64,000 nt of DNA from contig OZ076409.1 in assembly GCA_964187785.1 (NCBI GenBank), positions 60,700,001 to 60,764,000 of the forward strand. The letters are read 5' to 3'. A program made the position numbers and the translations under genes. Origin of the DNA: Amphiscolops sp. MND2022. Taxonomy: Eukaryota. The notes under the pieces were generated by a model. It worked only from the letters and a program-made list of their open reading frames with translations, was not told where the DNA came from and made no database searches. This document shows, one piece after another, positions 1-42,689 of this stretch; positions within the stretch are counted from its first letter, which is position 1, and every line of letters begins with the position of its first letter.

Positions 1-3000
1 CAGAACAAGCCCCAGAACCAATCATTTACCATGAGGCCCGTCAACATAACCACAAGGAAATTTGATGGCAAAAGCCAAAAATTTGAATTGTTTGAAGACC
101 TTTTTCATACCATGATAAAAATGCAACCCGAGATGACAGAACAGATGAAGATTAACCACCTCCACTCCCTTCTGAGAAAAAATTGTCTCCAAACTTTCCG
201 TAACATCAACTCTTCCAACAGACAAACACTTGAAGACGTTTTAATGATTTTCCGTAGAAACAACGTCAATCCCGAATCCCAAGCTACAGCCAAACATAAA
301 TGGCACCGCCTAACATTTGACCCAGCCACTCTGAAATTGCGAGGCTTCTTGGAAGAATTAAACCAGGAGCGGAAAAAGCGTTTGGCGAAAACGCTAAAAG
401 CATGATTGATAGCTTACTCTATGCCAAACTTCCACCCAAACTCAAACGATCTGTCAACATGGCCAGATTTGAAAATGGTGAGGAAATAGTGGCACACCTA
501 GAACGCGAAATTGAACTGAACGCGCTTGAAGAATCAGAAGATTTACCTGTTGCGACCATGACATCAGCTCAGACAAAAGGTGGAGGCAACCTCCTCTCAT
601 CAGGCATTGACCCAAAAACCAATTGAACCTAGTGTAAGGAAGAAGGACACCTTTATAAAAATTGCCCAAAATTGAAAGCCAAAAAAGAAAGAGAGTCGAA
701 AGTTGGGAAAAAACCAATAATGGTATATCCTAAATGCCCCACCTGCGAAAAAAACAACCACCTAGCAGAAAGATGTTGGAAGGGAGCGGGCGCTCACCTC
801 AACCCCAAACGAAAAAAAACTGAGGACAAGGAGACAATAGACGAATCCAACAAGAAAGAAGAACCCTCAGATAACAGATCTACCATATCGAAAACACCAA
901 ATTCTATACTCAAAAATCCAAACCCAAAAAAAACTAATTTTGCCACGACTCCAAGTTTATCCGTTGACAAAAATTACCTATTTTGTCATATCTGACCCTC
1001 CATTAGCCACAAATAAAGAATATCAAAAATACACTGTTGGCATACCAACCGTTTTCTGGCAGCAACAGATGGAAGTTGCTCGAATTGAAACACAAAACAT
1101 AATTAATAACACCGATACATCTCTCCCCAAATGGGGGGATGACTATACTAACGACTTTACTACTAGATTCAGACCACTTTCCCTCATAGAAGATTACGAC
1201 CCCCTCTTATATAGATACTGACTACAACCGGGATCCTTACTGGGATGATGAATTATACGACCAACAACAACTACGATTCCATCAAAACCTATCACGTCAC
1301 ACAAATGATCAAGAAACAGACGATCCGGTGGTGAAAACAAAATAACATGCAATAATCCATCTATGGGAACCCGACCAGTCTACACCATCCGGACACTCTC
1401 AGCCCCGGGAGCGAAATGCAACACACATAAATGAGGAGACATCCGTCCTGGATGAGACCATTTTTGCTAACGTCTTTATATCTTTGGAAGGACCTCCACC
1501 TTACGTTCCTCTGTCAACTAACCTTGGCCTCAAATACAAACACAGGATGCTCTGTTTTCCCATGGACTTCGGTGCATGTACCGGTGCAAAACCGGATTCT
1601 GACCTCCGGAAAATCAAATTGATAACCCCTAAATCGATCAAAAGGAAGGTCCTCCTCCAAACTTCCCAATAATGGTAGTCAGCAGACAATTGGAAACACC
1701 AAAAGCTACAGTAGAACTCAAATTTGAAGTTGGAGGCTCTGAACTCCACGAAATTTTCGTAGTGATAGAAAACCTGACCGGACCCATGATAGGGCTCATG
1801 TTCATAGAGAAGAAACACATAGTACTGGACATGAGACAAGCGATACTAAATTTTCCTTATTTCTCCATGCAACTAGAAACCGCTGATCACAAATACTCCA
1901 ATGTCATGGAGCCGATTCTCAATCCATACGACATTACAATTCCACCTAACGACAGAGTGACAATCCAAATCCAATCTTAAATTTATTCTGAACATGCCGT
2001 GAATGGAATACTACAACCGAGTGATTCATTGCATAAAAACGGAGATGTGACATTTCGCCCGGTTATAATAACAATGACAGAATGCAACACAAAAATACAC
2101 ATAACCAATTTCACAGACCAACCATTCTGTATAAAGAAAGGACTTCATATAGCAACTTTCTCGGTACTAACTCCAGAACAACTGAAGAAAATCCAAACGG
2201 TGGATCCTGTCACAACATGGCATTCACTTCAAGAGAAAGAAGAAAATGCAGTTCAATACGTTAGTAGCCTCGTTAAAACCCACCGGAACAGCGAAGACAT
2301 GGAACAATATTGGTTCCCTACACCAGAGAATCCAGGTGATGAAACGATCTACACTCCGATTCAAAAGAGAATACTCGCAGAATTGCCTAACTTACAGCAA
2401 TTAGAACAACTCAATCCCCTAGAAAATGAACAATTAAGACAACAATTCTCGAATAATTTTGACTGGAAAGATTCCATGCTCAACAGACAAAAAATCGCGG
2501 ATATAGAAAACTTCCTGGTATAGAAACCGTCCTTTCACGACATATTTGCGCGTCACAGACTTGACATTGGAATGAATGAGGAAATTACCATCAAACTAAC
2601 ACCAAAAGACGACCCACCAGCATAGAGCCTTATTCCACCTACCCCAGTAAACCTCAAAGACGACATTATGTCTGAATTAGCACTACTACACAAATACGGA
2701 ATAATCGCAACATTACCGTTCTCAAAATACGCCACCCCTATTTTCGCACAGAAAAATCCAAACGGTAAACTGCGCCTCCTAGTAGATCTTAGAAAAATCA
2801 ATAACCTCATTTCCGACAATTACCAGAATAATAACCACTCAGTTAGTACATTAACTGACGCCGCAAAACACATGGCAGGCAAAAAGCTATTTTGCAAACT
2901 TGACTGCTCGCAAGCCTACCATTGCCTACAAACGGCTGACCAAAAGTCATTTGAATAATTAGCATTCAATTTCGCAAGCAAGACATTTTCGTAGAGGCGA

Positions 3001-5215
3001 CTTTCACAAGGATCCTGCAGATCATTGTCTGCCTTCTCCATCTCGATGCGGGAATATCTAGATCCAGGCAAACCAATGTGCCCAATTGTCGATCATATTG
3101 GGATAGCAGCCAACAGCGCGGACAAATTACTGAAAAACCTACGCGAAACGTTCAAGTGCATTCGCCAAGCCGGACTCAAGCTAACAAAGCATAAATGCCA
3201 CTTCGGAGCCAACTTCCTAAGACGAGCAATCACTCCAACAGGAGTTAAACCTCAGAAGGAAAACGTGCAAACCTTCCTAGAGAAAACCAAATTTTCAGAA
3301 TCAAAAAAAAAGATTTCCAACGATACCTTGGGTCCCTTACTTACTATAGAAATTACATCCCAGGACTATCGGAAAAAATAGCACCATTTTTCCAAATGCT
3401 CAATTTTGACGACAAGGTATTAGTTACCCAAGAACTAATACAGCATTTCAACGCCATCAATAAAGACCTAGACCGATGCGGCGAGTTGACACTCAAACAA
3501 CCATTGCCTAACAAACAATTGGCTTTAAATGACTGACGCCAGTTTTTCAGCAGCAGGATATGCCCTCCTCACGGAAGACGATCCCGAACAAAATTACACC
3601 TCATTAAGGAAAGCTTATGCTCCAATAGCATATGGCTCGAAAACATTCACACCCTCACAACTGAAGATGTCCAAATATGCCAAAGAATTTCTATCCAAAT
3701 ACTCTGCATTCAAGGAATTTGGACATATCTTCTCGGGAGCAACACAGCTCATAATCATACTTACGGACAATAAAGCGGTCACCAAATTCTTCCAAACAAA
3801 GATAGTCCCACCGCCACTATGGAACCCCTGTCACTATTATAACTGTATCATAACAGCAATTGATATTGATGTATTCTCAAGATACCTGTTCGCATACCCG
3901 TTAGTCGAGGCAACAGCAACATCGACAGCTAAAGTTCTCATTGATATAATGACCAAACACTGATACAACGCTGCTAACGGACAAAGGGTTGGTATTCACA
4001 TCAATCATCATTGAAGAAATAACCTAAGATCAGGGAACAACACTCAAATGTGCCACAACAAAACACCCACAAACTATAGGCAAACTCGAGCGAACTCACG
4101 CCTCACTCAAAACAAACCTCAAAATGGCATCAGGCGAGTATCGTCGTCAATGGCACAAATACTTACCCTTAGCAGTGTTGAACTATAAGACCACATACCA
4201 TACGACCCTTGGGTGTGAACCAACTCGCGTTTTCTACTGTCGGATACCGCACAAAATATTGGATCATGGAATAGGTATCAATCCTAATGAAAAATTCTTA
4301 CCAACAACAGAAGAATTACAAAGAAAAACGCAAATACTTATAGACCAAACAAAACACAATGTCATGCAATCGTATTTGAAATACAAAGAATATTATGATC
4401 ACAAGGCCGCGCTGCACCATTAAAAGAAAAAGACTTTTGTTTCGTCTTACAGTCTAAAGGGGTCCACCAAGTATATAAAATCCCATTCAGTGATTAAAGA
4501 TGGGTTGGTCCTTACATTGTCTGAAAAACCTTGTCTAATGACACTTACATAGTGCGCAAAATTAACACCAACAAAACACAAATCTTGCATCGAATACGCT
4601 TGAAAAAATTTTTCCTTAATAAATCGATCATCGATTCCTATCAAAATGAAAAAGTTCAAGCAGATGATGATATTATCGTACCGCAAGATTATGTGTACAC
4701 ACTAGCATGGGAAACTGACTTCGGTTACCAACTTATAGAGCATCCCGATACCGTGTCTATACCAGTGTCTGCGCGACAAGAAGCGCATGAGACGGAGACG
4801 GCTGACGAAGCGGCTACGACTCGCACACGCGAAGATAGCAATCCAAACAATCCGAATAGCTTTGACGTTAACGACAAGTCCGTTCGGAGTCACGCAACAA
4901 GACACAACGACGTCACACCACTTACTAATGAAACAAACGAACAACAACCTGTCCCGGATTTGTCAAAACAGCGTCAAACGAATGAAAACGCACCAAAAGA
5001 CGATGAAAATAAATTTGAGAAAACCAAGGAAAGTCACGTCAAAGAAACTATTGATGACTCTAAAGACTATTTAGCCGGGGGAGATATTACCGTGACCGGC
5101 AAATCAGAAAACGATAAAAATGTAAAAACAAACAAAAATAAGAGTCCTAGAGGAGGGAAATAGAACCTTCGACCTAACCCCCTCCCCCAGCTATACTGAT
5201 GATTACAGATAGACT
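1..5215 (+). mobile_element. Degraded Ty3/Gypsy LTR retrotransposon gag-pol (5' end outside window; multiple stops, frameshifts and internal deletions)
   Basis: Gag-like FDGKSQKFELFEDLF and zinc knuckle CPTCEKNNHLAERC; protease C-terminal region (IGLMF); RT motifs (PIFAQKNPNGKLRLLVDLRKIN, KLDCSQAYH); RNase H (TDASFSAAG...YGSK...KEFL...TDNKA); integrase (IDVFSRY, GKLER, YKTTYHTTLGCEP, WVGPY). Order PR-RT-RH-IN is Gypsy-type. Confidence 0.93.
1925..2165 (+). pseudogene. Degenerate dUTPase-like domain between protease and RT
   Basis: DITIPPNDRVTI and IHITNFTDQPFCIKKGLHIA resemble the N- and C-terminal strands of trimeric dUTPase folds; catalytic motifs not recognisable. Confidence 0.5.
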
Positions 5216-7274
5216 CAAAACTAAATTGATAACCCCTTTTTTCTCATTTTAATATATATTGGAATCTTGAAGGGGACATGCATTATTCTCTAGCAAATAA
5301 TTTGGTCTCCAAGCAATTGGATAAAATAAACAAAAACAGACATTTTCACTCATGACATACAGATGAACGATGAGTTTATAAACACAAACTTCTCTATAGA
5401 AATGAAAGTACATAACAAATGAATGAGTTTGAGCACGACAAGGAAAGAATTAAAACATAGAAGTTCCTTGCAAATCAGCAACACCTCGGGCTACATAAGA
5501 TTTGCTGACGCTACCAAACCATTTACGACCCTTTACTCGGCGGCTGGGTCGAAGTGGTAACAGCTCTGAACTAGCTGTTCCAGCAGGCCTAACATGTACC
5601 CGTCGGGAGCTCTCCTTTTATGAGCAAAGTGGGACAATTTAGAAAGAAAGACAGAGACACCTAGGTCCCGCGAGGACGCCTATATACTCGTCTCTGCATT
5701 CTTGTTCGCTAGTGCTCTGAACCCACCCTCTCAATTTAAAGCCACAGTAAATGTCGCTGAAACATCTCGTGCCGAAATCCAGTGGCATATCTATCATGAC
5801 GTGGGGATCGAAACAAGCCATTCCTCGAACATTGTTTGTGGTCATAGTGATATGCTTGCGGGCGCCCTCAATGAGGAAGAGATAATAATTGCGAGCCGAA
5901 TTACAAAACTCGGTACGTAGTGTGGACACAAGTCATCAAGAATTGAGCGATCTAGCTTTTTGTCGCTGAGCTCCGCGGCTGCTTTCTTTCGCAACGCAAC
6001 ATCCATCTTACTCGTGAGGTTAAACGTGTGTAGAAAACCCTCTGGCAGTAAGGCTTCTTGGCTCTCTATATGCAGGAAAGGAGGCCGGTCCAATCGTCGT
6101 CAGCAGGGACACAGCGGTCTATCAGGCACGGCACACACAACTTATGAATAAAGCGTGATAACTGACCATAGATGTGGAAACCGGCATGCCTCCTGTTGTT
6201 GAGTGAACGCTCGAACTATGTGACGACTTAAACGCGAACAACACATATAGCATAAGAAGCCTGTGAAAATTACACTATGACATATAGGAATTGTGTACAC
6301 ATCTGAGACATATAGAAACGCGAAACAACCTGGGTCATAAATAGTTAAGGATAAGTCAGGTATGTTCGGTAATGTAGACAACAGTTGTCAGAAAACTTAC
6401 AGTCGTGCACGATTCGGGAGAAGAGCTCGAGTTTGATGGTGAACAGATCAGATTGTCCATCAGGATCATCCAGTCCAAGGTCTGCGGCTGAAAGTGAACA
6501 CGAATAATAAACTAGACTTGTATTTCCTCAAAAAATCGACCAGATTGTAACTAAACTTCGTCCTAATGCCAGCCATTTCTTGGTACCGAGTTGTCTTCCG
6601 AAGGTACTCGCTCACTTGGGACCAGTGCGTTAACAGCTCGTGGCACACTAGGGGCAAAGTCATAAACTGGATTTTGCGCGCAAGAATAGCCTGAAAAGAC
6701 AACGAACTTAACGTACGTACATAGAGAATTGAGATCAAGGAAACTACAAAATACCTTATTCAGCTCATGGCACTCCAAGGTCCAGCTGAGGGACAAGCTG
6801 CCTCCAAGAGAAACTATCAGACCCTGGAGGACTGAAAAGAAATCCACCATCTCGAACACACTACGGGGGGACAACCATGAGGGTTATCACTGGAGGTTGA
6901 CAGTTTCAAAACGAAATGGTGATTGCAGGGTGTGTTTGAAAACTCCGAAATCGTCAATAGTCTGGATAAAGTCTTTGGGACAACCACAGACAGCAACCAA
7001 TTGGGGCCTGGTAGAAACAGCGGAAAGGACCCTTGACAATGACCTCTTTTCCCCAGCTAAATGAGGACTTTGTAGGCCGTATCTGCACAAGAAGGCCTTG
7101 ACGAGGCTTTCAAATTTCCAGAAGCTGATGAAGACATGCTTGAAGCACCCACACTTCCTCAAACTCTAACGCAAATTGACCAGTGGTGAGGAGCTGTTGC
7201 CCAAGATTATTGAGCAGGCAGATGAAGAAATGATACAAGACAACCTATTAAACAGAAAATACGAGTTAGGAGAG

Positions 7275-9175
7275 TGTGGAAATTTTAGTTTTTGGCGTCT
7301 GCGAAAACCCATTGTGTTGCGCGAAGTGCATACGATCGACAGAAATATAATAATCATGTTTTTAGACCGTCGTAATAGTGAAAACAGCTGAACAGTGAAC
7401 CCATGTTTCGATATGGCTTATTTGGCAAACGGAATGTAGAAAGAATAAATTTGATTGTTTGAGGAAGATAGAATTGACGCCAACAACGAATTTGTTCGAA
7501 TTAGCTAAGTTAGAATCGACCGCTTAGAACGAACATTACCAAGTTTTTCCTTTGAGAGAAAATGAGAGGATGTGAAAAAACACCACCCCCCCCGTCCCGG
7601 TGAACTACTGAACCGATCCCGCTGAAATTTGGCACACGTATACCTGAGGTGTTATGCTACTCGCCAATGAAAACGGAACCGAGCCGAGACTCCCAGTCCC
7701 GGGCTATTAGCACCGGAAGTGGCCTAGGTCGACCCCCCTATGAACTCGTCGGCCAAGCACGGAAAAAGTCGTATTATATATATGATCGATAGCCCATATG
7801 ACATTAGGCCGTTTGCGAATGTTTTGGGAACCCTACGACGCGCGTAGGAGGAGCACGGACCCTAAGTAAATAAACCCCGAACGTTATGTAAATCGCCAAC
7901 GGATGACCCGAAGATCATGAATCTTACCCGAGATGTTCACCTAGTAACACTAAGTAATATACATGCAAGATACATCGATCGATACACCACGCGCGGAGTA
8001 TTGTTTGTTTAAGGCACGCGGGACCGGACGCACGGGCCCGACCGATAAATGACATTTGACCTTGGCTTGTAACATATCAAACGAACCGGAATAATGAACG
8101 TAGTCGCTTTATAACAAGAATGAGACCGTATTTGTAACCCATGCGGGGGTAGCCGCCTTAAGTAAACAAACCATACGCATATCATGTAACTCGAAGACTA
8201 TTGACCCTAGGATGACATAACTTGGCATGTAACAACTCTGGATGAGGGCAATTAACTTCAAGGTCACCGATGGACCTCAAGGTCATTCCAGATGCAACTT
8301 AGGAACATATAGAGAAACTTGTGATAAAACATGTAAATCAGCGTCTTTAAGTGATAATTTATGCAATTCAGCCAGGCGGAACGATTCGCGATGCATTGCG
8401 CCCAAAAGGACGGAAAAGTAACCCTCACACGTAGAGAGCATGTAAACCATAAAATTGAAGGTCATTAAACGATTGGCTCGATATTGGAAATATCTTGGTT
8501 GACTTGAATTATTATTGAAATGTGAACTTTGTACAACCATTGTTGAACTATTTGTCGTTGGCGGCGAAGAATGTTTGACCGAAAAAATAACTAAGGCGCT
8601 GCCATGCCATAAAAGGAAAGGAGACACATGAAGTTAAAAGCATGCAAATAAAAGAGCGACATCGGTACAACAAAAATGCAGCTGATGAATAAATATCTCA
8701 GGGAGGGAAAAAAGACCGATTTAAGACACAAGAACGATTACGAAGTTAAGAGTAAGTTGAGCCGCGTGCGGGCAGGAAACCTACTCGAGAACGATTTGAC
8801 TTAACTGCTTTGTGAGAGCAGCGAATTAGTTACAAGTCCAGGACTTGGAAATCTTAGTGTGAATCGTGATTCTGGCACAGTCTTGTCGAGTTATTGTATA
8901 TAATTCATTCACCTGCTGTGCTATTGTTATTGTTTGATTAAGTAGTTACGTACTGTGGAAATATTCAACTTGTATTATCCAGATAACTCCTGAATTAGAG
9001 TATTAATTGCGAGTAACTTTTCAATAGTATTTTTGGAGTCGAAGCTTGAGCACCGGAGAGACTTTGTGAAAAGAGTACGCGGTACGTGGACGAAACTTAC
9101 TCACTAAAAACTAAATCTTTCTATTAGAATCGAGCAGTGGGATTCCTCTCCAACCCTCTAGCAAAAATTTCTACA
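7275..9175 (+). repeat. 5' LTR
   Basis: Starts TGTGGAAATTTT and ends AAAATTTCTACA (imperfect terminal inverted repeat); near-identical to 13889-15788. Confidence 0.97.
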
Positions 9176-9176
9176 G

Positions 9177-9194
9177 TGGCGCTCCTGGGTGGGC
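9177..9194 (+). promoter_or_regulatory. Primer-binding site, probably tRNA-Asn
   Basis: TGGCGCTCCTGGGTGGGC, 1 nt after the LTR; its reverse complement GCCCACCCAGGAGCGCCA resembles the 3' end of metazoan tRNA-Asn. Confidence 0.75.
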
Positions 9195-9382
9195 AATTTT
9201 CGTAGTTCTGTATCGCTGTTATTTTGGAATTGTTTTACTGGGACTTAGCTGTAATCCCTTGACGACGCGATCAAAACAAGCACATTATCTGATGAGGTTG
9301 ATCGACTGAGAACGTTTTCGTACGATAGAACAGAGAGGTTTCTCTATTGCAACTAGTTGGTGCCTGAAGTAACGCTTTGGGT

Positions 9383-11716
9383 ATGGAAGACGAACAGCGA
9401 CTTGCAATAATGGAGGCTGTCGCCCAAGGTGTGATACAGGGCCTCAACGGGAATGAGAATCGGCTGTTTGGCAATGGAGCAATCAGACCTGACAGCTTCC
9501 CCTCGCAGAACTATCCAGTTTGGTCCCAATGGAAAACGCACTTTTGCAGAGTTGGCAGAACAAACGGATGGACAGAGTTGTAAAGTCTACAAGCTGTGCC
9601 TGTGTGCTTGATTGGGTACGCATTGGACGAGTACAACGCTGCGCCTCGAGAACTGGGAGAGCAAGTGGATGGGGAAGATGCACCTACGTTAGCTGCACTA
9701 TTCAATCACCTGGGGAGAGAAATGGGAATGATGCGAAATGACCGTCTGGGGAAAGCAGAAATCAGACAACTGCGACAGCGACCAGAGGAAACCCTGAGGG
9801 AATTTGCCCGACGAGTGAGAAACATTGGAAAGATTGCCTACTCAGAGAAGGACCCCAACACGAGAGACGAGTTGTTTCGGGAGAACTTTCTCGAGGGTTT
9901 GAGCGACGTACAACTGGAAGTTCAGTTGTTGAAAGAAAACCCACAAACATTTGGGAATCTAGTGGACAGGGCCGTTGACTTGGAAGTTATTGCTCGAACA
10001 ACACGTGGCCATTCACGGAATGAACAAGAGCAGTACGAAGAGTTCGGAAGGCAGCAAGACTCAAGTCGTGACATCCGTGGTTATTAAGACGAACCGTGGA
10101 AAGAAGGGTTACAACAGCTCACTAGAAGAATGGACCAGATGACGCAGATGATGATGACTTTCATGGAAACTCTGTCAACAATTGTGAGGCCTGAGAAGCA
10201 GGCTGGGATGACAGACCCACCCAAACGCGAGGTCACCCCTGTGGCGACCGAACAAAAATTCAAGGGGAATTGCGGTTTTGTAGCCGATATCTGCCCTGTT
10301 TGCGATGGTTTTGGACATTTTTCCCAGCAATGCCCCAAACGGCAGGTGATGGTCGAAGACGCTCCTGAGGTGCACGGGAAGTTGACAAGAGAGAAAGCTG
10401 CACAAATTGTTGAGAGGGCCGGCTTAGCAATTGAAAGAAAAGCGCTGAACGCTGTGCGTGTGGTAGACTGTTCTGGTTGTAACAGCGGGGTTTTCGTGAA
10501 AGCCCGAATCGAGGGAAGAGAGATGGACATTTTGTTGCACACGGGAGCTGGCGTGAACGTGGTGGACTCAAGTACAATGGAATCGTTTAGACCCCCTGAT
10601 GAGGTCGAAGAATTTCGTGGAGAGTTGCGGTCTGTAGACGGTCAACCAGTGACGACTAAAAGACTAACCCGACTGAATTTGCAGCTGGGACCCTTGAAGG
10701 AGCAGGAAAAATTTGTGGTGGTTCCCCACTGCGAGCCATCCGTTATTCTAGGCTTGAACTTCGTGAAAAAGCATAGAATGATTTTTGACTTTGGGAAAGA
10801 CGAACTGTCCATACCTCCTCTGTCCCCGGAACCGCTGAAAATGAGAGTTGTTGCATCGCAATGGGGCGAAGACGGAGGAAGTTGTTACCAGCGGAGCACC
10901 AGTGACAGCCGTGAAAGCGCGGAGACTGAACCCTCACGGTCGACATCCTCCACTCAGCACTGGAGCGTTCCCGACAGCAAGAATCCAAGATGGGATTCCG
11001 GAGAGAAACCGCCACCAAAGCGATGGGACGCAATGATAGTGGACACAGATGCTAATTTCTGCATGGTATCGACAACAGAGTCTCAAAACAGGAGTGATGG
11101 CAGCGGATGCTCCATCGTTACTAGCCTGAAACCTTATCAGATGACCCTTTTTGGCGATGATGACGTCGACGGAGGACGCGGAAACCTGAAGTACAAAGAG
11201 ATCGAAGGAGACCTATTTTCGTCCAAAGGTTGTTTGGCTGACTGTTTTTCGGCAGATTTCCACATGGGGATCGGAGTTGCCAAGCAAGTCAAAACGAGTT
11301 ATCCCACTACCTATCCGAAGGGTGTCAACCACAAGAAACAGCCAGTTTTTGCGCAGTGGATTGAAGGAGAACGTCGTTACGTGTATCACTTGGTCACCAA
11401 ACAACGATACTTCGAGAAACCGACCTACGACTCCGTGGAAACGTCGCTGCAACAGATGAGAACCCACGCGGAGTGGTCTGGGGTCCACAGAATAGGCCTG
11501 TCGAGGATGGGCTGTGGCTTGGATAAACTGAATCGGAGTGAAATACGAAGCCTAATTAAAGACGTCTTCAAAGGGAGTCACGTAGCTATTACAGTGTATG
11601 TAGTCCCTCAGCAGAACCCGACTCCCAATTGCGAGACTGACGTCGAAGAAGTTGGAAGCAGAAGGGGAGAACGCCCTTCGCCGACACATTCCAGCTCGGA
11701 GTACATTGACGACTAG
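9383..11716 (+). pseudogene. Gag-CCHC knuckle-aspartic protease-macrodomain polyprotein (one frame, in-frame stops at 9581 and 10085)
   Basis: ORFs at 9377, 9596 and 10130 share a frame; gag QRPEETLREFARR/FLEGL; CPVCDGFGHFSQQC; protease LL(H)TGAG...ILGLNF; macrodomain at the C-terminus. Confidence 0.9.
11186..11599 (+). other. TARG1/OARD1 (Poa1p-like) macrodomain, ADP-ribose glycohydrolase fold
   Basis: GDLFS, LAxCxSADxxMGxGVA, YVYHLVTKQRYFEKPTY, SLQQMR, RMGCGLDKL and DVF...ITVY match hallmark motifs of the TARG1 class. Confidence 0.92.
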
Positions 11717-12668
11717 TTCGACAGGAACCAACAATCAGAACTTTGAAAGTTCAAAGAGCGAGGGTTGCGGTCTCTCCGACACAAGAGGAGCGAGAATGCA
11801 GGTTTTTTGGTCAGTCAAACGCGGAGCGGCTCAGCCGGATGCCACTGGACCGTACAAACGTGAGAAGATGATGGCTTAATGAACAACTATCACTTCGGGA
11901 GATTGACGTGTCTTTGGTTAGATGTATTTGACCCGAAACTTCGATTCGGCTTGACGACTTTTCGAAACTTAGTGAAACTTTCCTTAATCTTAATTTTTGT
12001 TTTTGTTTTTTTTTATATAAATCAGGTAACGCGCCACCCGTGAACACCTGAAACCCCCTGTGACGTTGTTTCGAAGCGAGCAGAAGGGAAGAAAGAATTT
12101 TTAATTAGCAGTGCTAGATATTAGAAATTCGGGTATTACTAAAACAACGGCGCCTCGAAACAATGTCCCCCCAAGGCTCAAGGCATGTTCTTGTGTATAA
12201 TTTTTACGACCCAACGAGACCTGTTCCTGAGGATTCCCCCTTCCAAAGAAAGTATGTCTCTTCGACGAATTATGACCATTGCCCCATGTTTTAATCGCCC
12301 TGAGATACTCTTCCATCAAAGCGCTGTTCCGCCTTGTCTATATTTTTTTTATTATCTACGATCAATCGACCTCCCCTCCCTAAAATGACTACCCCGAGTT
12401 AATGATGCGGTGAAAAATCAGAGTTTTGTACCTAGTGATGAATCGTAGCCCCCCAGATTTGCTTTGATATAGTTTTGTGCAGTATTTTTTTGTTACATTC
12501 TTTGACCCTTGCACCCTTCTCTTTATAGAAGACTCGACCAAACCCTGAATCGTACTCGTTCGTAAGCATTAAAGGGGACTTTCTCAAATTAGAGGGAGAA
12601 CTATGAATACTGTATTTCAATTATAACGAAAGAAGTCAATGATTACAGACGATGCTTATACGGATGAA

Positions 12669-13094
12669 CTAAAGTAAGAAATGTGGAGGGGTTGGCTCCC
12701 GCAGAGCACCCCAGAGTTTTTGGCGGGCAATGAGGAAACGAAGTTGTTGCACTCCCACCAGACCAATCTCCGATGTGGCTAAGTTCCTCAGAAAGATGAC
12801 AAATTCTACCCAACCAGGGCTAAGGTAGTCCAGACATAACGCGCCCAATTCGCCCTCCACGGTCAGCTGGACCTCGTGATGCTCTGCAATTTCCATACGG
12901 GTGATCTCGAACACCACGCGGAAGTACTGAGATTCCCAATACAGACTCAATAGGAAAGAACCTTGTGCCATGTTGCTATTCTCGTTTTGATATAGGCGTA
13001 GAGGAAAGCGTATGGATGTATAATTTAGCAGTACCGAAACTCCGAGCTGACGAAAGTTGACTGTGGTAAAAGAGTAAATATGTCGAGTAAACAA
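12669..13094 (-). CDS. Antisense hypothetical ORF (141 aa) inside the non-autonomous LTR element
   Basis: Open frame only; no recognisable motif. Confidence 0.25.
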   Translation of the reverse strand: MFTRHIYSFTTVNFRQLGVSVLLNYTSIRFPLRLYQNENSNMAQGSFLLSLYWESQYFRVVFEITRMEIAEHHEVQLTVEGELGALCLDYLSPGWVEFVIFLRNLATSEIGLVGVQQLRFLIARQKLWGALREPTPPHFLL

Positions 13095-13876
13095 AACTTA
13101 CAACGACAAAAATCCCACTTCAATTAATTTTTGATTCTTTGACATACTTCTGAAAGCGAATATCTAAGCAAGTAAAAGGAGAACCATGAAAACCCGTACC
13201 CGAATGTTGCTGAAAGTAATGAACTACAGGAAACAATTGTTTGCTCTCTAAACAGATCTCGAAGTGGCCCTCCAAATGAAACCTCACGAGTACGAAAGAC
13301 TTGAAAACAAACATTTTCGTTAGAGTGGATAGACTTCGCAAAATAAATTTGCCGAGCAAACAAAGACAAGAACGGGGAGATATTCACATTATTTCAATTT
13401 TGGCTGCTTAGCGAGTGTTAGTAAAACTAGCTTTTATTGAATGGCGTATATGGCATTATACTGGTCTTGGGACTGCGGAATTTGATGAAATAGTAATTCT
13501 AGAAAGTGTCGGGAGTAACATATCGCAGACAGTTTTCAATACAGGGACCTATTCATGTTACCCATCAGATAGTTCATTCTATGAAGTTTCATTGGTTCAA
13601 CATTTTCATGACTAAATAACCACAGGGTGCTACTTTAATAAAATTATGTTTAAATTGACTGATAAATATTTATCATTTCTTTTATGCTGTGTTATACTAG
13701 TTCTTGAAATCTTTAGATATCATCAATAATCGGTACCATTGTTTTTTTTGGAAATCGTTCTGAACAATGCCTAGCCCCCCAGAATCGTTGATCATGTTTA
13801 AACTGGACCCCACGATTCAGCCTATGAAAACGGTTAATTCGAAAAATGTTAGGTTTATTCGGGAGAATAAAAGTTC

Positions 13877-13888
13877 AGAAAAGAAGAG
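13877..13888 (+). promoter_or_regulatory. Polypurine tract
   Basis: AGAAAAGAAGAG immediately before the 3' LTR. Confidence 0.8.
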
Positions 13889-15788
13889 TGTGGAAATTTT
13901 AGTTTTTGGCGTCTACGAAAACCCATTGCGTTGCGCGAAGTACATACGATCGACAGAAATATAATAATCATGTTTTTAGAACGTCGTAATAGTGAAAACA
14001 GCTGAACAGTGAACCCATGTTTCGATATGGCTTATTTGGCAAACGGAATGTAGAAAGAGTAAATTTGATTGTTTGAGGAAGATAGAATTGACGCCAACAA
14101 CGAAATTGTTCGAATTAGCTAAGTTACAATCGACCGCTTAGAGCGAACATTACTAAGTTTTCCTTTGAGAGAAAATGAGAGGATGTAAAAAAACACCACC
14201 CCCCCCGTCCCGGTGAATTACTGAACCGATCCCGCTGAAATTTGGCACACGTATACCTGAGGTGTTATGCTACTCGCCAATGAAAACGGAACCGAGCCGA
14301 GACTCCCAGTCCCGGGCTATTAGCACCGGAAGTGGCCTAGGTTGACCCCCCTATGAACTCGTCGGCCAAGCACGGAAAAAGTCGTATTATATATATGATC
14401 GATAGCCCATATGACATTAGGCCGTTTGCGAATGTTTTGGGAACCCTACGACGCGCGTAGGAGGAGCACGGACCCTAAGTAAATAAACCCCGAACGTTAT
14501 GTAAATCGCCAACGGATGACCCGAAGACCATGAAACTTACCCAAGATGTTCACCTAGTAACCCTTAGAAATATACATGAAAGATACATCGATCGATACAC
14601 AACGCGCGGAGTAATGTTTGTTTAAGGCACGCGGGACCGGACGCGCGGGCCCGACCGATAAATGACATTTGACCTTGGCTTGTAACATATCAAACTAACG
14701 GAATAATGAGCGTAGTCGATTTATAACAAGAATGAGACCGTATTTGTAACCCACGCGGGGGTAGCCGCCTTAAGTAAACAAACCATACGCATATCATGTA
14801 ACTCGAAGACTATTGACCCTAGGATGACATAACTTGGCATGTAGCAACTCTGGATGAGGGCAATTAACTTCAAGGTCACCGATGGACCTCAAGGTCATTC
14901 CAGATGCAACCTAGGAACATATAGAGAAACTTGTGATAAAACATGTAAATCAGCGTCTTTAAGTGATACATTATGCAATTCAGCCAGGCGGAACGATTCG
15001 CGATGCATTGCGCCCGAAAGGACGGAAAAGTAACCCTCACACGTAGAGAGCATGTAAACCATGTACTTGAAGGTCATTAAACGATTGGCTCGATATTAGA
15101 AATATCTTGGTTGATTTGAATTATTATTGAAATGTGAACTTTGTACAACCATTGTTGAACTATTTGTCGTTGGCGGCGAAGAATGTTTGACCGAAAAAAT
15201 AACCAAGGCGCTGCCATGCTATAAAAGAAATGGAGACACATGAAGTTAAAAGCATGCAAATAAAAGAGCGACATCGGTACAACAAAAATGCGGCTGATGA
15301 ATAAATATCTCAGGGAGAGAAAAATAGACCGAATTAGGACACAAGAACGATTACGAAGTTAAGAGTAAGTTGAACCGCGTGCGGGCAAGAAACCTACTCG
15401 AGAACGATTTGACTTAACTGCTTTGTGAGAGCAGCGAATTAGTTACAAGTCCGGGACTTGGAAATCTTAGTGTGAATCGTGATTCTGGCACAGTCTTGTC
15501 GAGTTATTGTATATAATTCATTCACCTGCTGTGCTATTGTTTTTGTTTGATTGAGTAGTTACGTACTGTGGAAATATTCAACTTGTATTATCCAGATAAC
15601 TCCTGAATTAGAGTATTTTTTGCGAGTAACTTTTCCATAGCATTTTTGGAGTCGAAGTTTGAGCACCGGAGAGACTTTGTGAAAAGAGTACGCGATACGT
15701 GGACGAAACTTACTCACTAAAAACTAAACCTTTCTGTTAGAATCGAGCAGTGGGATTCCTCTCCAACCCTCTAGCAAAACTTTCTACA
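13889..15788 (+). repeat. 3' LTR
   Basis: Direct repeat of 7275-9175, TG...CA. Confidence 0.97.
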
Positions 15789-18700
15789 GAGAGGGTACCT
15801 GACAAAACAAGCGTGAAACACGACATTAACAAACAAAAGTAGTGCATGTAAATCCATATAAAGATAAACATAACTAAATCGGAACTTACTGTCATTTTCT
15901 CCTCACTCCAGTCAAAGTCGCTGAACCAACTCTGGTGTTTTTTGAAGGTCCCTACTTTTGTCCAAATGCCCCGCAACGTCACCAAGTCTCCAGAAGTCTT
16001 CAAATAATCTCCAACTAAGCACAGTTGAGAGTAATTTCGACTCCCGTTGGAAGTAGAACTGTCTCGAGTTGCCTTGAAATTTTCATAAAAGGGAAACTTC
16101 TTGCCCAACTCGACCAATTCCTCATCTATGAACTTGGGTAATTCGAGCTCCAACTCGAACTTGTCCGTTATGTTCCCCTTTTTGTCACAAACGAAATGGG
16201 TGGAGGTCTTGCTCACGGAGTCAGTCCTTCCAAGGTGGGTTAACTCCACTTTTGGTCCTTGTAAAAATGTTCACGGAATGAATAATGGCGCTTGTCTTCA
16301 GCTTCCCCCTTTTCCATAGATGGAAATATTTCTGCGCTAAAAACAAATTTGGCAATAAAAACAATGGGGGATTTTCTAAGGGCTCATGGGACCTGACACA
16401 AACACACGAGACCACTCTTACTTTCGGAAATATGTCTCCTTGAATACCTTGTCTGGCCGCTTCATTCTCTGTCGTTTTTGGGGAAGATCGCCAACCCCAC
16501 CGTTCTGGTGGCACTCTCACTTCCAATGGCCCGTGGAGTCTCGGATAATGCCTTTTTGCGGCGTGTTGCTGGAGGAATTTGTTTTTGACTCCTTCCAAAT
16601 GCTTCTAACGTCTCGAACGGCTCTGCATTTTGTCCTTCAGTGTCAGAAAGACTCGGCAAGCTCAAATCACTTTCTCCCGTCTGTATTGCTCTGCTGATAT
16701 AACTTCCAGCAACGCCACTGTCTGGACAGACATGACTGTCATTAGACGACCCGGTGAAGGACGGTAGTGGTGTCGCCGCTCTAGCTCGCCCTACTCGGAA
16801 AGACTGATCCTGGTTAGTGGCTACCTTACCTCCACTAGAGAGTCTGGATGCTCACTGCAGAAGTCCAATCATCATCTCCAAAGAGATATGTGCAGTTTCG
16901 TCACAGGCTACTCTTATTAGGTTTTAAACTTGATCTTCACTGAAGGCAACTGTGGTATGATCAGTAGGTAGCTCCACTGGGGGATTTTGCTCAAAATATT
17001 TTTTCAAAAAAGAACGACTGGGCCATGTGAGTCGCCTAAGCTGAGGGTAAGGGTCAATTGAATTCAACCCAATTTCAGTTTGATTGTCCTCTGTTTCAGT
17101 CTGCTCCGCATCAGAGGTGTCGGTTCTTAACCCGCTGAGTCGTCCAGTGGGCCGTGGTGTCTCATGTAGGACGGCATTTTGATACACTCACCAAGGATGA
17201 GCACATCAGAGTCGCTGTCGAGGATATCGCGCATAATGGTGTTGAAGGATGGTGAAGTTCGGGCTTGAAGTTGCCCTGCTGACTTGATGACTTCTGACTC
17301 ACCATGGATGATTGTTGACGTTTCCCCATGACATATGCGGGTAGGGGACTTGCTGGAAGTATCGACAACAACCGAACTGGGAATTCCCTCAGAGTTGGCT
17401 TCGCCACAATTTCCAGAAGTCGGCTCACCACCTCGAACGACCTTACGGCTAATGTAATCAAAAGCGTATAGGTTAACATCATCCCCAGAGCTTCCGCTGG
17501 ACTGGAATGCTAGAAGGGCGGGAGCTAGAGAGACTGAATTGGGGGCATGGTATTGATCTTCTTGTGAAAGTTTGGGAACAATTTGTGAGTTAGTGCGATT
17601 GGACGATGGGTGTCTTTCCGGAGATGACATTCCTAAGCGGAAGGAGATTTGATTACGCGGAACACTTCCTGAGTAAAAATCCATTTTGCCGCATAAAAAG
17701 CTTCCGGAAGCTAAATAGAAGTTTTTCCACGCAACAACAGCGTGTGTTTTGATGGAGGAAGTGCATAGTATAGGAAAGCCCTGATCAAGCTAAAGTCCTA
17801 TGCAACAAACTACGCCAATCGAGAAAACTCACCTGAAACTGGAAATCCTGAGAAGATGTGACCGGAAGTAGAACGGATGGTTCCTGGTTGAAGGCTGTTA
17901 TCTAGACAGGAAGTGAATAAGAAATGAGCCTGGATGAAGACAAAGAGCAAGAAACAATGCTTGAGAGTGGAAAGGTAACAAGTGACAGCTGCTAATCAGG
18001 AAACGAAGGTAGTAAGACATAATGATGGACAGCACAAAAATGTCTAGTGGTTTATTGAATACTGCTTGACTGAGAGGAAGTTGTGAAACAAAAGACAATA
18101 ATATGGTAAATAACTAAAACGAAATGTTGGAACAAAATCTGGAAATTATTAAAGAATGCAATTGAACCAGTAGAACTGTGTACAATACAACCCGCCTGAT
18201 TGACAAAGTAAAGGCAATGAGCAATGGACAAACGAATAGCTTTTTGTAACAATAGTTAGGTGTGAACAAATTGGAGTGGTTAATTGGAGTTCGTGGCAAC
18301 GAGACAAATAAAGGTACAGGTATACTAATGAAAGTAAGTGCGCTTAGTCTGCCAGCCTGTGCTTTAAATTGTCCGTTTGATGTCTATTTGGACAAAGCTG
18401 AACAAAGAAAAATGGAAAAGACATTAATTAAAACGAAAAAAAAATTAAAATTATTTCGACATAAAAATTAAATTCAGTAGATTAGAACTTGAAAAATTAT
18501 TAATTTATCAAAGGCATATGATTGGCTGAGAATAGTAGTAAGTCAGCTCGAATACAAATTTTAATTACCTACTTGAGGGACGATAGTTGGGGCGAAGATG
18601 AGTGGTAAACAACTGAAAGGATAATTAAAGAGGATTGAGGTGTTGTTATGAAATCCTTGAGCCAACTTAAGACAAGCACTTGAGACTCCATTCAGAAACA

Positions 18701-18896: not shown

Positions 18897-19810
18897 ATGG
18901 ACCCCCAAGTTTATCTCGAGCCCGTGCAAGGATCACTCTACTCAGAACTCATCATGATTTCGAGCGACGAGGAAGAGACCTTCAGTGATGGTTTTTCTAT
19001 AATCTCTTAGAATTTGAGGCAAATATGATGGACGTGGAGGCCCAGGTGATGGCGATGAACATAGATGCCCAGCTGTCCAACCCAGTGGCCGTCCGTGGTA
19101 GACAGATGACAGTGGAAGCTAAAAATAACACCACTCTGGCGCCTACGCCTATACATTGTGTTGGCCCCTATCCAAGTTACCAACCCCGTGGGGTAAATAG
19201 CTTCAGGGACGTTCCGACAGTGGATGACCACCGAAGAGAGCATCACCCTATGGCTGCGTGTTGCAACTTGATACCATTTGTGGACACTACATCGTCCCAC
19301 CCTCCACATGAAAGGGGGTTTTTGGATATATCGATTAATGACTTGCTGACACCTTACACCCAGCCGAAGAAAGTGTCAGTAGGAGTCCAAATCTTGCCTT
19401 CATGAGCATTCCAGCCTCCTTTGACTCCTGTAGCTCCTCCTTCAACTCCAATGATGCCCAGAAGTCTCGCCCATTTCCCAACCGGTCAACAGGCGCCCAA
19501 CGGTACCAAACGATGGTACTTTACCGACTGTATGATATGTGGGAAGCCGTATGAGCAGATAGCGAATGAAATAGTGATTGACTGCAACCATCATACAGAA
19601 TATCCGGGGGAGCCTTACTATGTCAAAGAGGCGAGATGGAGAGCGTTCGTAGAAGGAATGCATGAGGGTACTTACTTCCTCATTCCTCGGGGAGAGTCCC
19701 AGGCGGCCGATTGTGATGGGAATGTCCAGGCGATCCCTCAGAACGCAGTGGAAACGAACAGAGCACCCTCAAGCCTACCCTTAGAAGCAAAGAAAAACCC
19801 GACAAACTAA
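18897..19810 (+). pseudogene. Disrupted sense accessory ORF (acidic ISSDEEE patch, Pro-rich region, CxxC CMICGK)
   Basis: Consecutive ORF pieces 18897-19010, 19025-19405 and 19421-19810 with protein-like composition, just upstream of the candidate LTR. Confidence 0.45.
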
Positions 19811-20091
19811 AACTATGAAATATTGTTAAGTCATATAATGCATTTATAATGCCATACACTGTCTCCCCAAGACTGTAAAGTACATGTAAAGTTGACTAGA
19901 ATAGCTTATTAATAGTGTCGATCAAAATGCCTTTAAGACATTAAGGGAAAAAACCAACCCACTTCATGTGCAGTACACATTATTTTGTATCATTCACCAT
20001 GCTTGCATTAAACTGATATTCAGAAGCGCTATTATAGTACACGTAGCGTTACTCTCTACAGACAACCTTGGATCACCTTTGAAGGCGGCAA

Positions 20092-20256
20092 TGACGTCCC
20101 TAACCGTAATGCCGCCCTCCCTTTGATGATGCTAAAAATAGAAACTACTCACATGTTTGTTACGCAATTTGTAGTATTTTTAGAGAATGAGAACCCCAAA
20201 AGTGAAAGTCATGCAATGTAAGATATATAAGTACCCGTACCCCGAGAGGGGACACA
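20092..20256 (+). repeat. Candidate short LTR (~165 bp)
   Basis: TGACGTCCC...GGGACACA ends (TG..CA, imperfect inverted repeat); preceded by purine-rich GAAGGCGGCAA; contains TATATAA; no second copy in window. Confidence 0.55.
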
Positions 20257-20378
20257 ATTGTTACTCTGGTTTTTGGTTGAAACGTTGTAAACGAAAATCC
20301 TTGAGATTATATTTTTATTACGCTTTGCAATATCTGAATTGAGATAATCAATTTGCCAAGTTACTAAAATTTCTCAAG

Positions 20379-20890
20379 ATGCCCTCAACGAGAAGCAAGA
20401 AAGCTAACGCGAGGTGGTCAAGGGAAGCAGACATAACGTCAGACATAGAGAAAATGGACGTTACGCTTGGTACTGGTGAATACAATAAGATAGAGAGGGA
20501 TATTGACCAGATGATTGGTTTTTCTATTATGTAAAATAGGGATGAATATGAGGAAGGGCACTCCTTAAGACGTAATTCCTCACAGGACATTGAAATCAGG
20601 AATATGCCTGAAAACAGGAATGATCATGGTTTCTCTTGGGACCTAGACGTGTTAACGGGTGAAATAAACTTGAGGATATCTCAAGAGATTGGGAGTTTGA
20701 TAAATGGAATGAATTCCCAGATAGAAAGTGCGATAAGTTCCGCTATATCTGAAAGAATCATCCTTTAGTTGCAGGGTGTTGTAGAGGCGATTTTAAACAG
20801 GCAATTAGAAGGTGTCTCGTCAATGTCCAGGAGACCTCAGAATACAGATAGTGATAAACGCAATAAGATTGATATGCAAAACAGGAACTC
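20379..20890 (+). pseudogene. Truncated gag-like N-terminus of a further retroelement
   Basis: MPSTRSKKANAR...SDIEKMDVTLG followed by a coiled-coil-like stretch, 120 bp after the candidate LTR; cut off by LINE sequence. Confidence 0.5.
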
Positions 20891-22783
20891 CCGTTTTTGG
20901 CTGAATTTTACAGAACCTGAGGGTGAGTGTTCTTACATTCTCATATACAACCACCCCCCAGCAACATCCGATTATCGTATTGCTCTCGATCAATTGTTGT
21001 TCTGTTTTGAGTTTCATTTGGATCAAATACGTGAGAATGCACTATCAAATCAGCTCGTAAAGTTTGTTCTAGGAGATTTCAACCTACATACTGCCTTCGA
21101 AAACCTCTCCAATTATGAACATTCAAACTTCACGTTTTTTCTGAACAAATCGATTTAGCGCAGATGGTCGAATTTCCTACACATAAGTCAGGTAACAGGA
21201 ACTAACCTTCACTAACTCAACATCCTTCAACAATTTTCCCTCGTCTTCGTTATACTCGGATCAATATGCAATCTTGACCGTTCTCATGTAGCAGTCTTAA
21301 CAGGGAATTATTCGATGCTTTACTAGACACTCTCTACAAAAGAATTTAATGCAACCAACAGCCCGGTTTCCCTAACCATTTCACGAGCCACACCCTATCT
21401 TGCCTTCCCCTCTGTTGCTCCAAGAACTCTAAACGACGCATGGGATTTCCTTATTATTCATCTCATCCAATACATATTTGTAATGAAATCAGAACGGCAT
21501 AATCCAAACCGAACATGTCGCCTTATCTGTTGGCGAAGCTGGAAAATGATCTCAACGTCAGTGTAACCCTAGACAGAACATTGATGTTCAACAATTTACA
21601 AACTAAAAACATCTACTCAGCTATTGAATGTCTTCAAAGATTCAGGAGGGATGCAGATCTTCCGTCAACTGTCTCCTACAAAAAAGAAATGGCTCACTCA
21701 GATAATGGCACCGCTAAATTATTCAACAAGTACTTCGTGCCGGTTTTTAATTCTGGAACTCAGTCCATCTTGGTGCTTACAATTAGAGCGTCAATTTTCC
21801 TTGCATACGTCGTCATCCTTCCTCAAACAGTTTCCAAACTTCTTGGTAAATACAAAATCTCATTGAGTGCTGACCTTGTTCCACTATTCATTTACCACCA
21901 TGACTGTGTTGAAGTTATTACACCATTGTTATGTCAAGTTTATAACAACGTGATAAAAAGCTGTTCATGGCCTTATGGATGGAAATGTAGTTTAATAAAA
22001 CCTATTCTTAAATCTGGAAAATCCAATGACAATAAAAACTATCGCCCAATCAGTATCCTACCTCCTTTATCTCTCATTCTGGAGAAAATACTGGTCATTT
22101 TCTTGTACCCGAAATCATCAATCCTCTCAAACAACTGTCAACATGGTTTTAGAAAACGGCGCGCGACTAATACTCTGTTGTTCACGTATTTGGAATCATT
22201 ATACAGAAATGTTGACGGGAATTCCCCTGTGGTTCTATCTACTTCGGTTTTTCCAAAGGATTCGACACTGTAGTTTTTGATATCCTACTACAAAGCTTTC
22301 CATTTTTTGTCTAGACGATGGTTTTCTGAAACTGTTCTTATCGTATTTACAAAATCGAGTACAAAGAGTGAAAGTCAGAAATAGCGTCTCGTCTGCAAAA
22401 CGCAATAGCTCTGGTGTTCCCGAAGGTAGCATTTTGGGTCCTCAGCTGTTCCTGAATTTAATACCAATTAACCAGAACACTCTAAGTCTCAAGTCTTCCT
22501 CTTCGCTGATGACTCCAAATTCCGAGGTACTGTTCCGAGTATTCTCAATTCTTAATGCTGACATTGGCCACTCCACCGACTGGAGCGATACGAACAAGCT
22601 GAGTATCAACCTTTTGAAGTGTCAGTACTTTGTTCAGGCTCTGTTCCAGAAACAGCACAACTGTCTTTGGTACCAAAATCGAACATTCTTCACTAATGGA
22701 AGATTTTGGTCTATCTATCTCTTCTTTTACAGTTCTTTTCTCTGTCAACATGTTAAGGAATCTGTAATCAAATCTTGCGTTAT
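20890..22783 (+). mobile_element. Degraded APE-type LINE ORF2 fragment
   Basis: Endonuclease VLGDFN; RT motifs PILKSG...NYRPISILP, QHGFRK, GVPEGSILGP, FADD. Confidence 0.88.
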
Positions 22784-28138: not shown

Positions 28139-28577
28139 TATATAAAAATTCTAGCAAAGAATGCCTCTATTTGCAGGACATGATTATACAAATATATGAA
28201 GTTTACAAATGATCATGATTTCTTTGCGTCAGGTGAGTTTTAGTTTTCACAAATTACAGAAACGGGACGATTTTTTGAAAGAGTCCAACAGGTTAATCAT
28301 ATCACTATGGCTTCTTTTTCTTATTAGTCCTTCAAATGATCCAAATTTTAAGTGCTCCTCTCTCAAGTTATTGCAAAAACTGCAGTAAAAGATAAAATGC
28401 GTAGACGTCTCCTCGTGGTTGCAGATACAGTGTGGTGACGATGTTCATGATACTTGGTATTGAAAGTCTCGTAGATTGCATTGGTTTGTGAGCATCTCAA
28501 TTATCAAATTGGTAGCAAGTTTGCTGAAAGATCTTGGTATCAAAGGTTCTGTCGATTCTATTTGAGGGAAAGATTTA

Positions 28578-29176
28578 CTTATGAATAATGATGAAAAGTT
28601 GGTTTTGACAACCTGTACAAGCTCCAAAAATGGGACGCTGAACTATTTAATTGTGCTTACAAAAGTCTGAAAAAGTACTCCCCGAGACATTGGGTTGTCT
28701 GACAAAATAATTTTTTGTATGCTGAACTTTTGATGTTTTGCTGTGGTGACATTGAACTGAATCCAGGTCCTGAGATGTGCTACGAATACTTTGTCAAAGT
28801 TTCTGAGAAGTATAAAAACAACTTACGCTTTGTTCGTCTGAATTTCCAAGATCTATCTAAAAAGCCAATCCAATTGAAGTCTTTTATCAACGACATGGGC
28901 AAAACGCTATTATTGGGATTTCTGAAAGTTGACTCACTACCAACGATAAAATATCTTCATGTAATGTGTCTCCAAAAACTCATAAACTTTTCAGACGTGA
29001 CAGAAGTTCAACTAACTGTAAGTAGGGTGGAGGAGTAATGCTTTTGTACCCTTGAAACTAGCTAGCTCTCAGGGAACGTGATGATTCAAATCTTTTCGAT
29101 AACTCAACTTTTGAATCGCTATGGGTAGAATGTCGCTGTAGTTTTTTAAAAACCGTGAGTCTAAAATACTCTTGAA
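28578..29176 (+). mobile_element. L2/CR1-like LINE fragment, copy 1 (ORF1 end, 2A-like motif, EN start)
   Basis: Near-identical to 34522-34890 plus 37010-37250, and to 39274-39876. Confidence 0.85.
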
Positions 29177-30944: not shown

Positions 30945-31504
30945 GGTTACCAGTCACTTGGCTTAATACCATTTGGCTTAATTTTTTCGTCGAGTCATTT
31001 GGCTTAAAAATTTTAAGCCAAGTGACCACAAAATTAAGCCAACTCCATTCCAACTCAAGGAATAAATATGTCAACTCCCGGAAATATCATAATGTGGGGC
31101 ATATGCGGTGTATGCACGCTCGCCCTCACCGTCGCAAAGACCAGCTCCCACTACGATCGCTTCGCGATCTTCGTTCCCGCTAGGTCTTTGCTCCTGTTCG
31201 ACCTCGCTTAGCAAGATGGAAATATAAGCGGCCCCAAGGGGCCGCAGGGCACTAGAGGAAATGGGGACATACCCGAGGGGTACTTGATATGACATGTTAT
31301 AATAATACGCTGACTACGTTATAAAGATAAATTCGACAAAATCTGCCACGTGTTTTCAACTAAGTGGTTTTTAAGTCAAATGACTTTTTAAGCCAAGTGA
31401 CCAATACCCGAGACACTTAGCTTAAAAAAATTAAGCCAAGTGACCAATTGTATTAAGCCAAGTGACTTTAAGCCAAATGGCATTAAGCCAAGTGACCATT
31501 TACC
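30945..31504. mobile_element. MITE with TTAAGCCAAGTGAC subrepeats, inserted in LINE-B
   Basis: ~37-bp TIRs; 8-bp TSD GTAATGGC (30937-30944, 31505-31512); removal restores LINE peptide YTGAPNRGHYLV. Confidence 0.9.
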
Positions 31505-33149: not shown

Positions 33150-33323
33150 ATGATTTGCCACCAAGAAGTTTTAATGTGGTTTCTTCCCACGATCCTGTGT
33201 ATCACACTGGTAGCTGTTCTACAAGTTCATGTTGAAGCGAAGAATATCGTTTTGGAATCAAGATCTGCCCAATCTGAAGTCCAATCTCTCGCAGAAAGAC
33301 ATGATTTCCTGGTGATCAAACGG
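33150..33323 (+). CDS. Proprotein convertase (S8B kexin/furin family) exon 1: signal peptide and start of prodomain
   Basis: Hydrophobic signal LMWFLPTILCITLVAVLQVHVEA; prodomain-like LAERHDF; donor CGG|GTTAGT in phase 0, matching exon 2. Confidence 0.7.
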
Positions 33324-33534
33324 GTTAGTGAATTAGCAATCGTTCAGCTCTGTTAAATGAAAAGATGGAACATGAAGGAGCTCCCGGTTGATAATACAAA
33401 TCTAAATGAATGATAATACAAATACACTGAACCAATCAAATTTTAAACTTTCAAAGCTGTAGGAAATATTGGAGAATCTGCAACTGATTCATTCCAATCT
33501 TTCGAAGTATGATTGCCCTTTTCCCTACATGAAT

Positions 33535-33610
33535 TGCGCTCGGCGGTTAAGGCGGATTTTCAGGTGTGTCGACGACCTGAGAAGCAGAAATACGGGGTTC
33601 GAGTCCCGCA
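33535..33610 (+). repeat. tRNA-derived (SINE-like) sequence
   Basis: A-box-like GGCGGTTAAG and B box GGTTCGAGTCCC followed by a T-run; no clean cloverleaf. Confidence 0.45.
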
Positions 33611-42640: not shown

Positions 42641-42689
42641 TCTATATGGGTAATTTTTCATCAGTTTCAACTTCCTACTCATCGGTTTT

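Follow-up and report, generated by a model that had tools for sequence, protein, structure and literature searches.

A Gypsy retrotransposon lineage of Amphiscolops carries a conserved antisense gene with five predicted introns and a likely hAT transposase ancestry

We describe a lineage of Gypsy long terminal repeat (LTR) retrotransposons from Amphiscolops sp. MND2022 that carries a conserved antisense gene, predicted to contain five introns, between its pol and 3' LTR. Our analysis concerned a 64,000-nt stretch of contig OZ076409.1 (G000:C1:60700001-60764000; hereafter the window), in which a sequence-only reading had proposed a Gypsy element with a spliced accessory gene of its own between integrase and 3' LTR, and had guessed with low confidence at an origin from a hAT-like transposase or a zinc-finger protein. 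The proposed arrangement recurred in 43 of 50 other loci, and the hAT guess gained moderate support from language-model features and weak fold matches to Hermes. With moderate confidence, we interpret the gene as a likely hAT derivative whose product is predicted to be a nuclear, DNA-binding regulator that no longer cuts DNA.

The carrier family is large and recently active. A genome search with the core of the gene's first long exon gave 150 loci at E < 1e-63 from 8124 first-look candidates, so that at least 150 loci exist. Fifty loci besides the window were retrieved through the gene, as a non-random sample chosen to span close and distant matches. In 41/50, at least 150 aa of reverse transcriptase (RT)-RNase H-integrase lay upstream on the opposite strand; the remaining nine comprised two deleted Gypsy copies and seven loci in a CACTA DNA transposon family. 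The antisense position between pol and 3' LTR is thus the rule among these loci (43/50 Gypsy-borne), but the expectation that it would be invariable failed at the seven CACTA loci. Many Gypsy carriers are young, with LTRs 97-100% identical, TG...CA ends and 5-bp target site duplications (TSDs). Several of them have pol frames of 1725-1773 aa, and the frames of the antisense gene are open in young copies. Trees of RT and of the accessory gene agree in their subfamily groups, and their distances are correlated (Mantel r 0.26, 0/2000 permutations, 27 shared rows). Stop-free exons were compared in 309 pairs, which are not independent of one another. All 12 unsaturated Gypsy pairs gave dN/dS of 0.02-0.19; 290 pairs were synonymously saturated (mean pN 0.37), and seven near-identical CACTA pairs (0.11-0.78) were uninformative. 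The antisense gene in the Gypsy lineage is under purifying selection.

Natural copies were compared exon by exon, with splice positions set by protein motif alone. The motif chain was completed in 15 of 42 regions, the others failing through decay or motif misses. In the completed regions the exons measure 486/495 nt, 135 nt, 82 nt and about 385 codons. Their sizes are fixed, while the introns between them, with phases 0, 0, 0 and 1, vary in length between copies, from 52 to 500 nt. GT was found at 44/45 donors (introns 2-4) and AG at 58/60 acceptors, and the exon chain was fully open in 13/49 regions (two mis-picked). Upstream of the long first coding exon, 28 of 32 start contexts, a set that excludes CACTA copies and one duplicated locus, show a further intron, intron 0, which measures 191-205 nt; either an in-frame ATG mini-exon lies upstream of it, or else an ATG stands two bases past its acceptor. 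The five predicted GT-AG introns are conserved across subfamilies only about 50% identical in protein. Divergent relatives occur in other assemblies (ENA contigs P0020, P0140, P0034 and P0026), and two of them lack intron 1. Because P0020 and P0140, whose best identities to this genome are 39% and 28-37%, run uninterrupted from the first into the second coding exon at the predicted junction, the boundary of intron 1 is independently supported. Tandem internal duplications of the gene were seen in Gypsy copies L149-L151 (C8:59.33-59.36 Mb) and L075-L076.

These comparisons revise the gene model for the window (Table 1). The sequence-only reading had joined coding pieces across two introns on the minus strand, and both introns do begin with GT and end with AG. 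The one at 6691-6754 coincides with conserved intron 2. The other, 15799-15889, has the right donor but the wrong acceptor: 35 nt upstream of its conserved counterpart at 7246-7245, that acceptor is out of frame. The frame read on from it, VPSPNSYFLFNRL..., stops after 37 codons and differs from the conserved frame, and the stretch VPSPNSY... taken as coding is intronic, since the true acceptor is at 7245. Because the conserved acceptor lies beyond the 8.5-kb nested LTR element, that element sits inside intron 1. Its size, position and GAGAG duplication (copies at 7270-7274 and 15789-15793) had been recognised correctly. So had the unity of the two gene halves: the sequences flanking the nested element are adjacent in uninterrupted relatives, e.g. 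C13a, C1b, C2a, C2b and C12a. The host-derived length of intron 1 in the window is about 126 nt, as against 123-139 nt in close relatives. The two-intron structure had missed introns 0, 3 and 4, and the ATG at 17684 falls within the 200-nt intron 0; translation of the window gene likely began at 17630, and its stop codon is at 5452-5450. Nor is the window copy intact. The aligned exon pieces contain 11 stops, four exons are frame-changed, about 145 codons of the last exon are deleted near 5605-5660, and one donor, at 6555, reads TT. The window copy is a pseudogene.

Table 1. Positions of the Gypsy element, its antisense gene and associated features in the window
Feature	Positions	Strand	Remarks
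Decayed host Gypsy pol (RT, RNase H, integrase C-terminus)	1501..5160	+	Pfam, DNA identity
Last exon, hAT C-terminal-like, frameshifted	5450..6226	-	about 385 aa in intact copies
Intron 4, 174 nt, phase 1, GTAAGT...TAAG	6227..6400	-	position conserved
Short exon, frameshifted in window	6401..6487	-	82 nt in intact copies
Intron 3, 68 nt, phase 0	6488..6555	-	conserved donor reads TT in window
135-nt exon, open	6556..6690	-	45/45 aa aligned, no stop; size conserved
Intron 2, 64 nt, phase 0	6691..6754	-	matches conserved intron 2
Exon with RNase H-like core, frameshifted in window	6755..7244	-	486 nt in intact copies
Intron 1, phase 0, GTAAGT...AATAG	7245..15889	-	interrupted by nested element
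Nested LTR element, 8514 bp	7275..15788	+	LTRs 1.9 kb, 96.8% identical; TSD GAGAG
Long first coding exon	15890..17632	-	likely ATG 17630; stops and frameshifts in window
Intron 0, 200 nt, GTGAGT...CTTAG	17633..17832	-	intron in 28/32 start contexts
Conserved non-coding block, candidate promoter/leader	18341..18617	.	kept in one CACTA subfamily too
Decayed second accessory open reading frame, reaching into 3' LTR	18897..19810	+	260-340 aa in intact copies
Host element 3' LTR	19723..20937	+	90-91% identity to 5' LTR

The element that hosts this gene is a decayed Gypsy LTR retrotransposon copy, in which pol and the 3' LTR flank the antisense gene. Positions 1-5160 hold gag-pol remnants, among which Pfam detected RT_RNaseH (3e-11) and, weakly, RVT_1 and Integrase_p58_C. 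The window pol shares 70-83% DNA identity with the pol of other copies and has a tail of GGKYNLRPNP type, interrupted by a stop. The order protease-RT-RNase H-integrase is present in an intact relative (Pfam), and remnants of it remain in the window. The 5' LTR, partly duplicated, lies upstream of the window, and the TSD reads ttctg/ttctc; TG...CA ends with a TSD of 4-6 bp are as in Ty3/Gypsy elements.

Intact copies encode a protein of about 1200-1350 aa, for which we predict an acidic N-terminus, a C2H2/BED-like finger, an RNase H-like core and a helical C-terminus. The first coding exon supplies an acidic S/T/P-rich part, a basic cluster and the finger, whose CxxC...HxxxxxH pattern is conserved in 17/17 rows, although Pfam support for it is weak. 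Two non-overlapping parts of the protein each point, in language-model features, to hAT clusters; the C-terminal part has no Pfam match to the dimerisation domain PF05699, a domain that its Atlas neighbours carry. Several results weigh against a hAT origin. All sequence-profile tests against hAT transposases were non-significant, and the fold matches to Hermes (PDB 8edg) are weak, with other RNase H-like and helical folds tying with them. The same results would be expected of a real accessory gene whose source was a host gene or some other element with an RNase H fold, the hAT likeness being superficial. We consider such a source improbable, because the two parts point to hAT clusters independently and because the order of finger, RNase H strands, helices, FDP motif and C-terminal block is the hAT order. 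Descent from a hAT transposase remains likely, with moderate support. An env-like protein does not fit: the gene is antisense, and maximum 19-aa hydropathy was 0.5-1.2 in five exon-1 open reading frames (ORFs).

If it was a transposase, it appears to have lost its DDE catalytic positions. The first predicted strand has a nearly invariant E, and none of 12 sequences has an acidic residue at the second or the third position, positions having been assigned by eye from hAT motifs. This nearly invariant E could be taken as a sign of retained catalysis, by a second transposase or nuclease working through acidic residues at shifted positions. Such an enzyme is very improbable given the two substituted positions and the lack of reported terminal inverted repeats (TIRs) around the gene in Gypsy copies. 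Neither the window nor the Gypsy loci inspected have inverted repeats that bound the gene, and hAT-type TIRs and an 8-bp TSD were likewise not found there.

The CACTA loci bear on where the gene belongs. Five of them are copies of a 36-kb CACTA/EnSpm element, 96-99.6% identical between chromosomes, with a young copy at G000:C3 about 39270710-39306800 (L041, L034, L035, L042 and L043) and others on C10, C2, C9 and C12. TIRs and a TA duplication were found at both ends in two copies. The element has an intact 654-aa transposase ORF (DUF1258 4e-9; Transposase_21 and DUF4218 below cut-off). It also has a SET-domain-like ORF (L042:6603-7592, +; Pfam SET E 0.08, below cut-off), of which a further fragment lies about 1.5 kb upstream; this ORF, which by eye we take to be SUV4-20-like, is possibly chromatin-modifying cargo. 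Two further CACTA loci have a left end 92-94% identical to the 36-kb element, and in the part retrieved one of them also has its transposase ORF, but the gene copies that they carry are no more than 67-72% identical. For CACTA elements, sizes of 16-20 kb have been cited as enlarged (PMC6431247), and the present element exceeds them.

Copies bounded by their own TIRs had been named beforehand as an observation that would tell against a Gypsy accessory gene, and these seven loci are such copies. Seven of 50 loci in a young, TIR-bounded element with a TA duplication and its own transposase could mean that the gene is native to CACTA, or to an independent DNA transposon, and that Gypsy acquired it or merely hosts insertions. 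However, the five-locus group includes the C-terminus of Gypsy pol (...GKYNLRPNP), and both CACTA groups nest among Gypsy-borne copies; in a quick tree of 40 rows, with the root placed on the most distant subfamily, a single CACTA clade was rejected (p-AU 0.0067). Gypsy-borne diversity is also far deeper, with constant position and orientation. A CACTA-native gene is largely refuted by the pol tail, the nesting and this deeper diversity, and we give it hardly any weight. Since CACTA carries the pol tail and groups inside the Gypsy-borne copies, its possession of the gene is best read as secondary capture; in the simplest reading, the gene probably moved from Gypsy to CACTA twice, or once and was then replaced. 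The CACTA also contains arrays amplified from an 88-bp unit, which is related to the pol tail (window 4931-5013).

Introns in antisense orientation escape splicing of the sense genomic RNA, and hence survive reverse transcription. We propose that a hAT element landed in reverse orientation behind the pol of an ancestral Gypsy, and that its introns would have persisted as the spliceosome cannot read them on sense genomic RNA. An internal promoter located upstream of 17833 would give rise to a separate antisense mRNA, which would be spliced. The candidate promoter consists of the conserved non-coding block and the CTTCC/GGAAG-rich intron 0. Intron 0 of the window holds five such motifs, and seven copies have 2-5 against about 0.4 expected. 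The motifs TTGATCAGGG, ACTTCC, ACTTCCGGAAG and CAGGAAG are conserved across deep subfamilies, and no significant RNA fold was found in intron 0; the motifs are possibly protein-binding DNA sites. The protein would have lost its DDE residues while retaining finger, RNase H scaffold and helical C-terminal part, and would have gained or expanded an acidic disordered N-terminus of 400-500 aa. It may bind element DNA, and so promote element transcription or shield the element from silencing. The giant CACTA, with its SET-domain-like cargo, may have taken the gene twice for a regulatory benefit.

A catalytically dead hAT derivative could instead act in integration or nuclear import, as a tether or targeting factor. 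The retained DNA-binding finger and basic clusters would suit such a role, and nuclear import has been discussed for antisense ORFs (PMC7264820). But young CACTA copies without integrase keep the gene with open frames, and a Gypsy integration factor has no obvious use there, so we think this role unlikely, if less so than a superficial hAT likeness. A role in transcription or chromatin is favoured because open frames are retained in an integrase-free DNA transposon. Only tentatively would we go further: a retrotransposon may have domesticated a hAT transposase, introns included, as an antisense chromatin-acting factor that is tradable between transposable element (TE) classes, the 36-kb CACTA having captured it twice and its 88-bp arrays perhaps serving as binding sites. 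If so, an anti-silencing module would have gone from Class II elements to Class I and then returned to Class II.

Most young elements examined also have a second accessory ORF, in sense orientation (intact example, L079:3684-4646, -). Its N-terminus is acidic, its CxxC and AACDG motifs are conserved, and it ends within the 3' LTR; it matched no Pfam family, and no transmembrane segment was found in nine such ORFs (19-aa hydropathy maximum 0.8-1.35). The nested element encodes a gag-like ORF and an aspartic protease; RT was not found in it. The end of its ORF at 10088-11716 resembles, by our eye, what we presume to be a macrodomain, with no Pfam match to one. Elsewhere in the window, 28569-39848 contains several minus-strand non-LTR pieces with RT (29058-31086, 37337-38710), together with long near-identical duplications, and 172-bp repeat arrays lie at 42685-43506, 48196-48512 and 53576-54219.

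TEs are known to encode anti-silencing or regulatory factors, such as VANC of VANDAL, which has amplified target repeats, and PMD/MAIL1. HBZ of HTLV-1 is likewise an element-encoded regulator (PMC11963269). By analogy the present protein may share their mode of action as a DNA-binding regulator; there is no homology. Among hATs, the FAM200/ZBED5/GTF2IRD2 and DUF4371 types and Hermes (8edg) are closest, in the predicted domain order and RNase H-like core, in Atlas neighbours and in weak fold matches. The present gene differs from them in its apparently substituted DDE, long acidic N-terminus and lack of TIRs of its own, and in being retrotransposon-borne rather than host-domesticated.

The nearest parallels in arrangement are the antisense ORFs of plant Ty3/Gypsy elements between pol and 3' LTR (aORF-3R), among them gene23 of maize Grande and that of rice RIRE2 (PMC7264820); the Retand antisense ORF carries TRP28/PF04195 (PMC11963269). 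The present gene resembles these ORFs in position, orientation and lineage-wide conservation, and the nuclear or DNA-binding role proposed for them is like the one predicted here. An internal antisense promoter has been demonstrated for Grande and is only inferred in our case. No sequence relation to the plant ORFs was found, and the present protein has no match to PF04195. In the main text of both sources the word "intron" is absent, whereas the present gene has five predicted, conserved introns. The plant ORFs were also described as showing no similarity to other TEs, their origin unknown and a TE origin unsupported (PMC7264820), whereas the present protein, of about 1200-1350 aa, resembles a hAT transposase. 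In the fungus Botrytis, brtn of the Boty-like Gypsy (Zhao et al. 2011, cited in PMC8365987 and PMC7264820) is another antisense extra gene in a non-plant Gypsy; unlike the present gene, nothing in these citing passages suggests a transposase origin. Bdelloid rotifer LTR retrotransposons carry GDSL esterase or DEDDy nuclease ORF3s, and so are invertebrate LTR elements with captured enzyme-derived ORFs common to different TE types (PMC5408684); the words "intron" and "transposase" are absent from that text, while the present gene is likely transposase-derived and has introns.

Our literature search turned up no LTR element whose antisense gene is hAT-derived and has several introns. The family offers a probable origin for such an antisense gene, in that a retrotransposon would have tamed a DNA transposon nested in it, and a large protein with testable domains at 150 or more loci of deep divergence; its double recapture by CACTA would be a natural experiment. 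It also shows that a gene with five predicted introns can ride in a retrotransposon through many rounds of reverse transcription and keep its splice sites conserved. Antisense extra genes were already known from plants and Botrytis; what sets the present gene apart is the probable hAT origin together with the five predicted introns.
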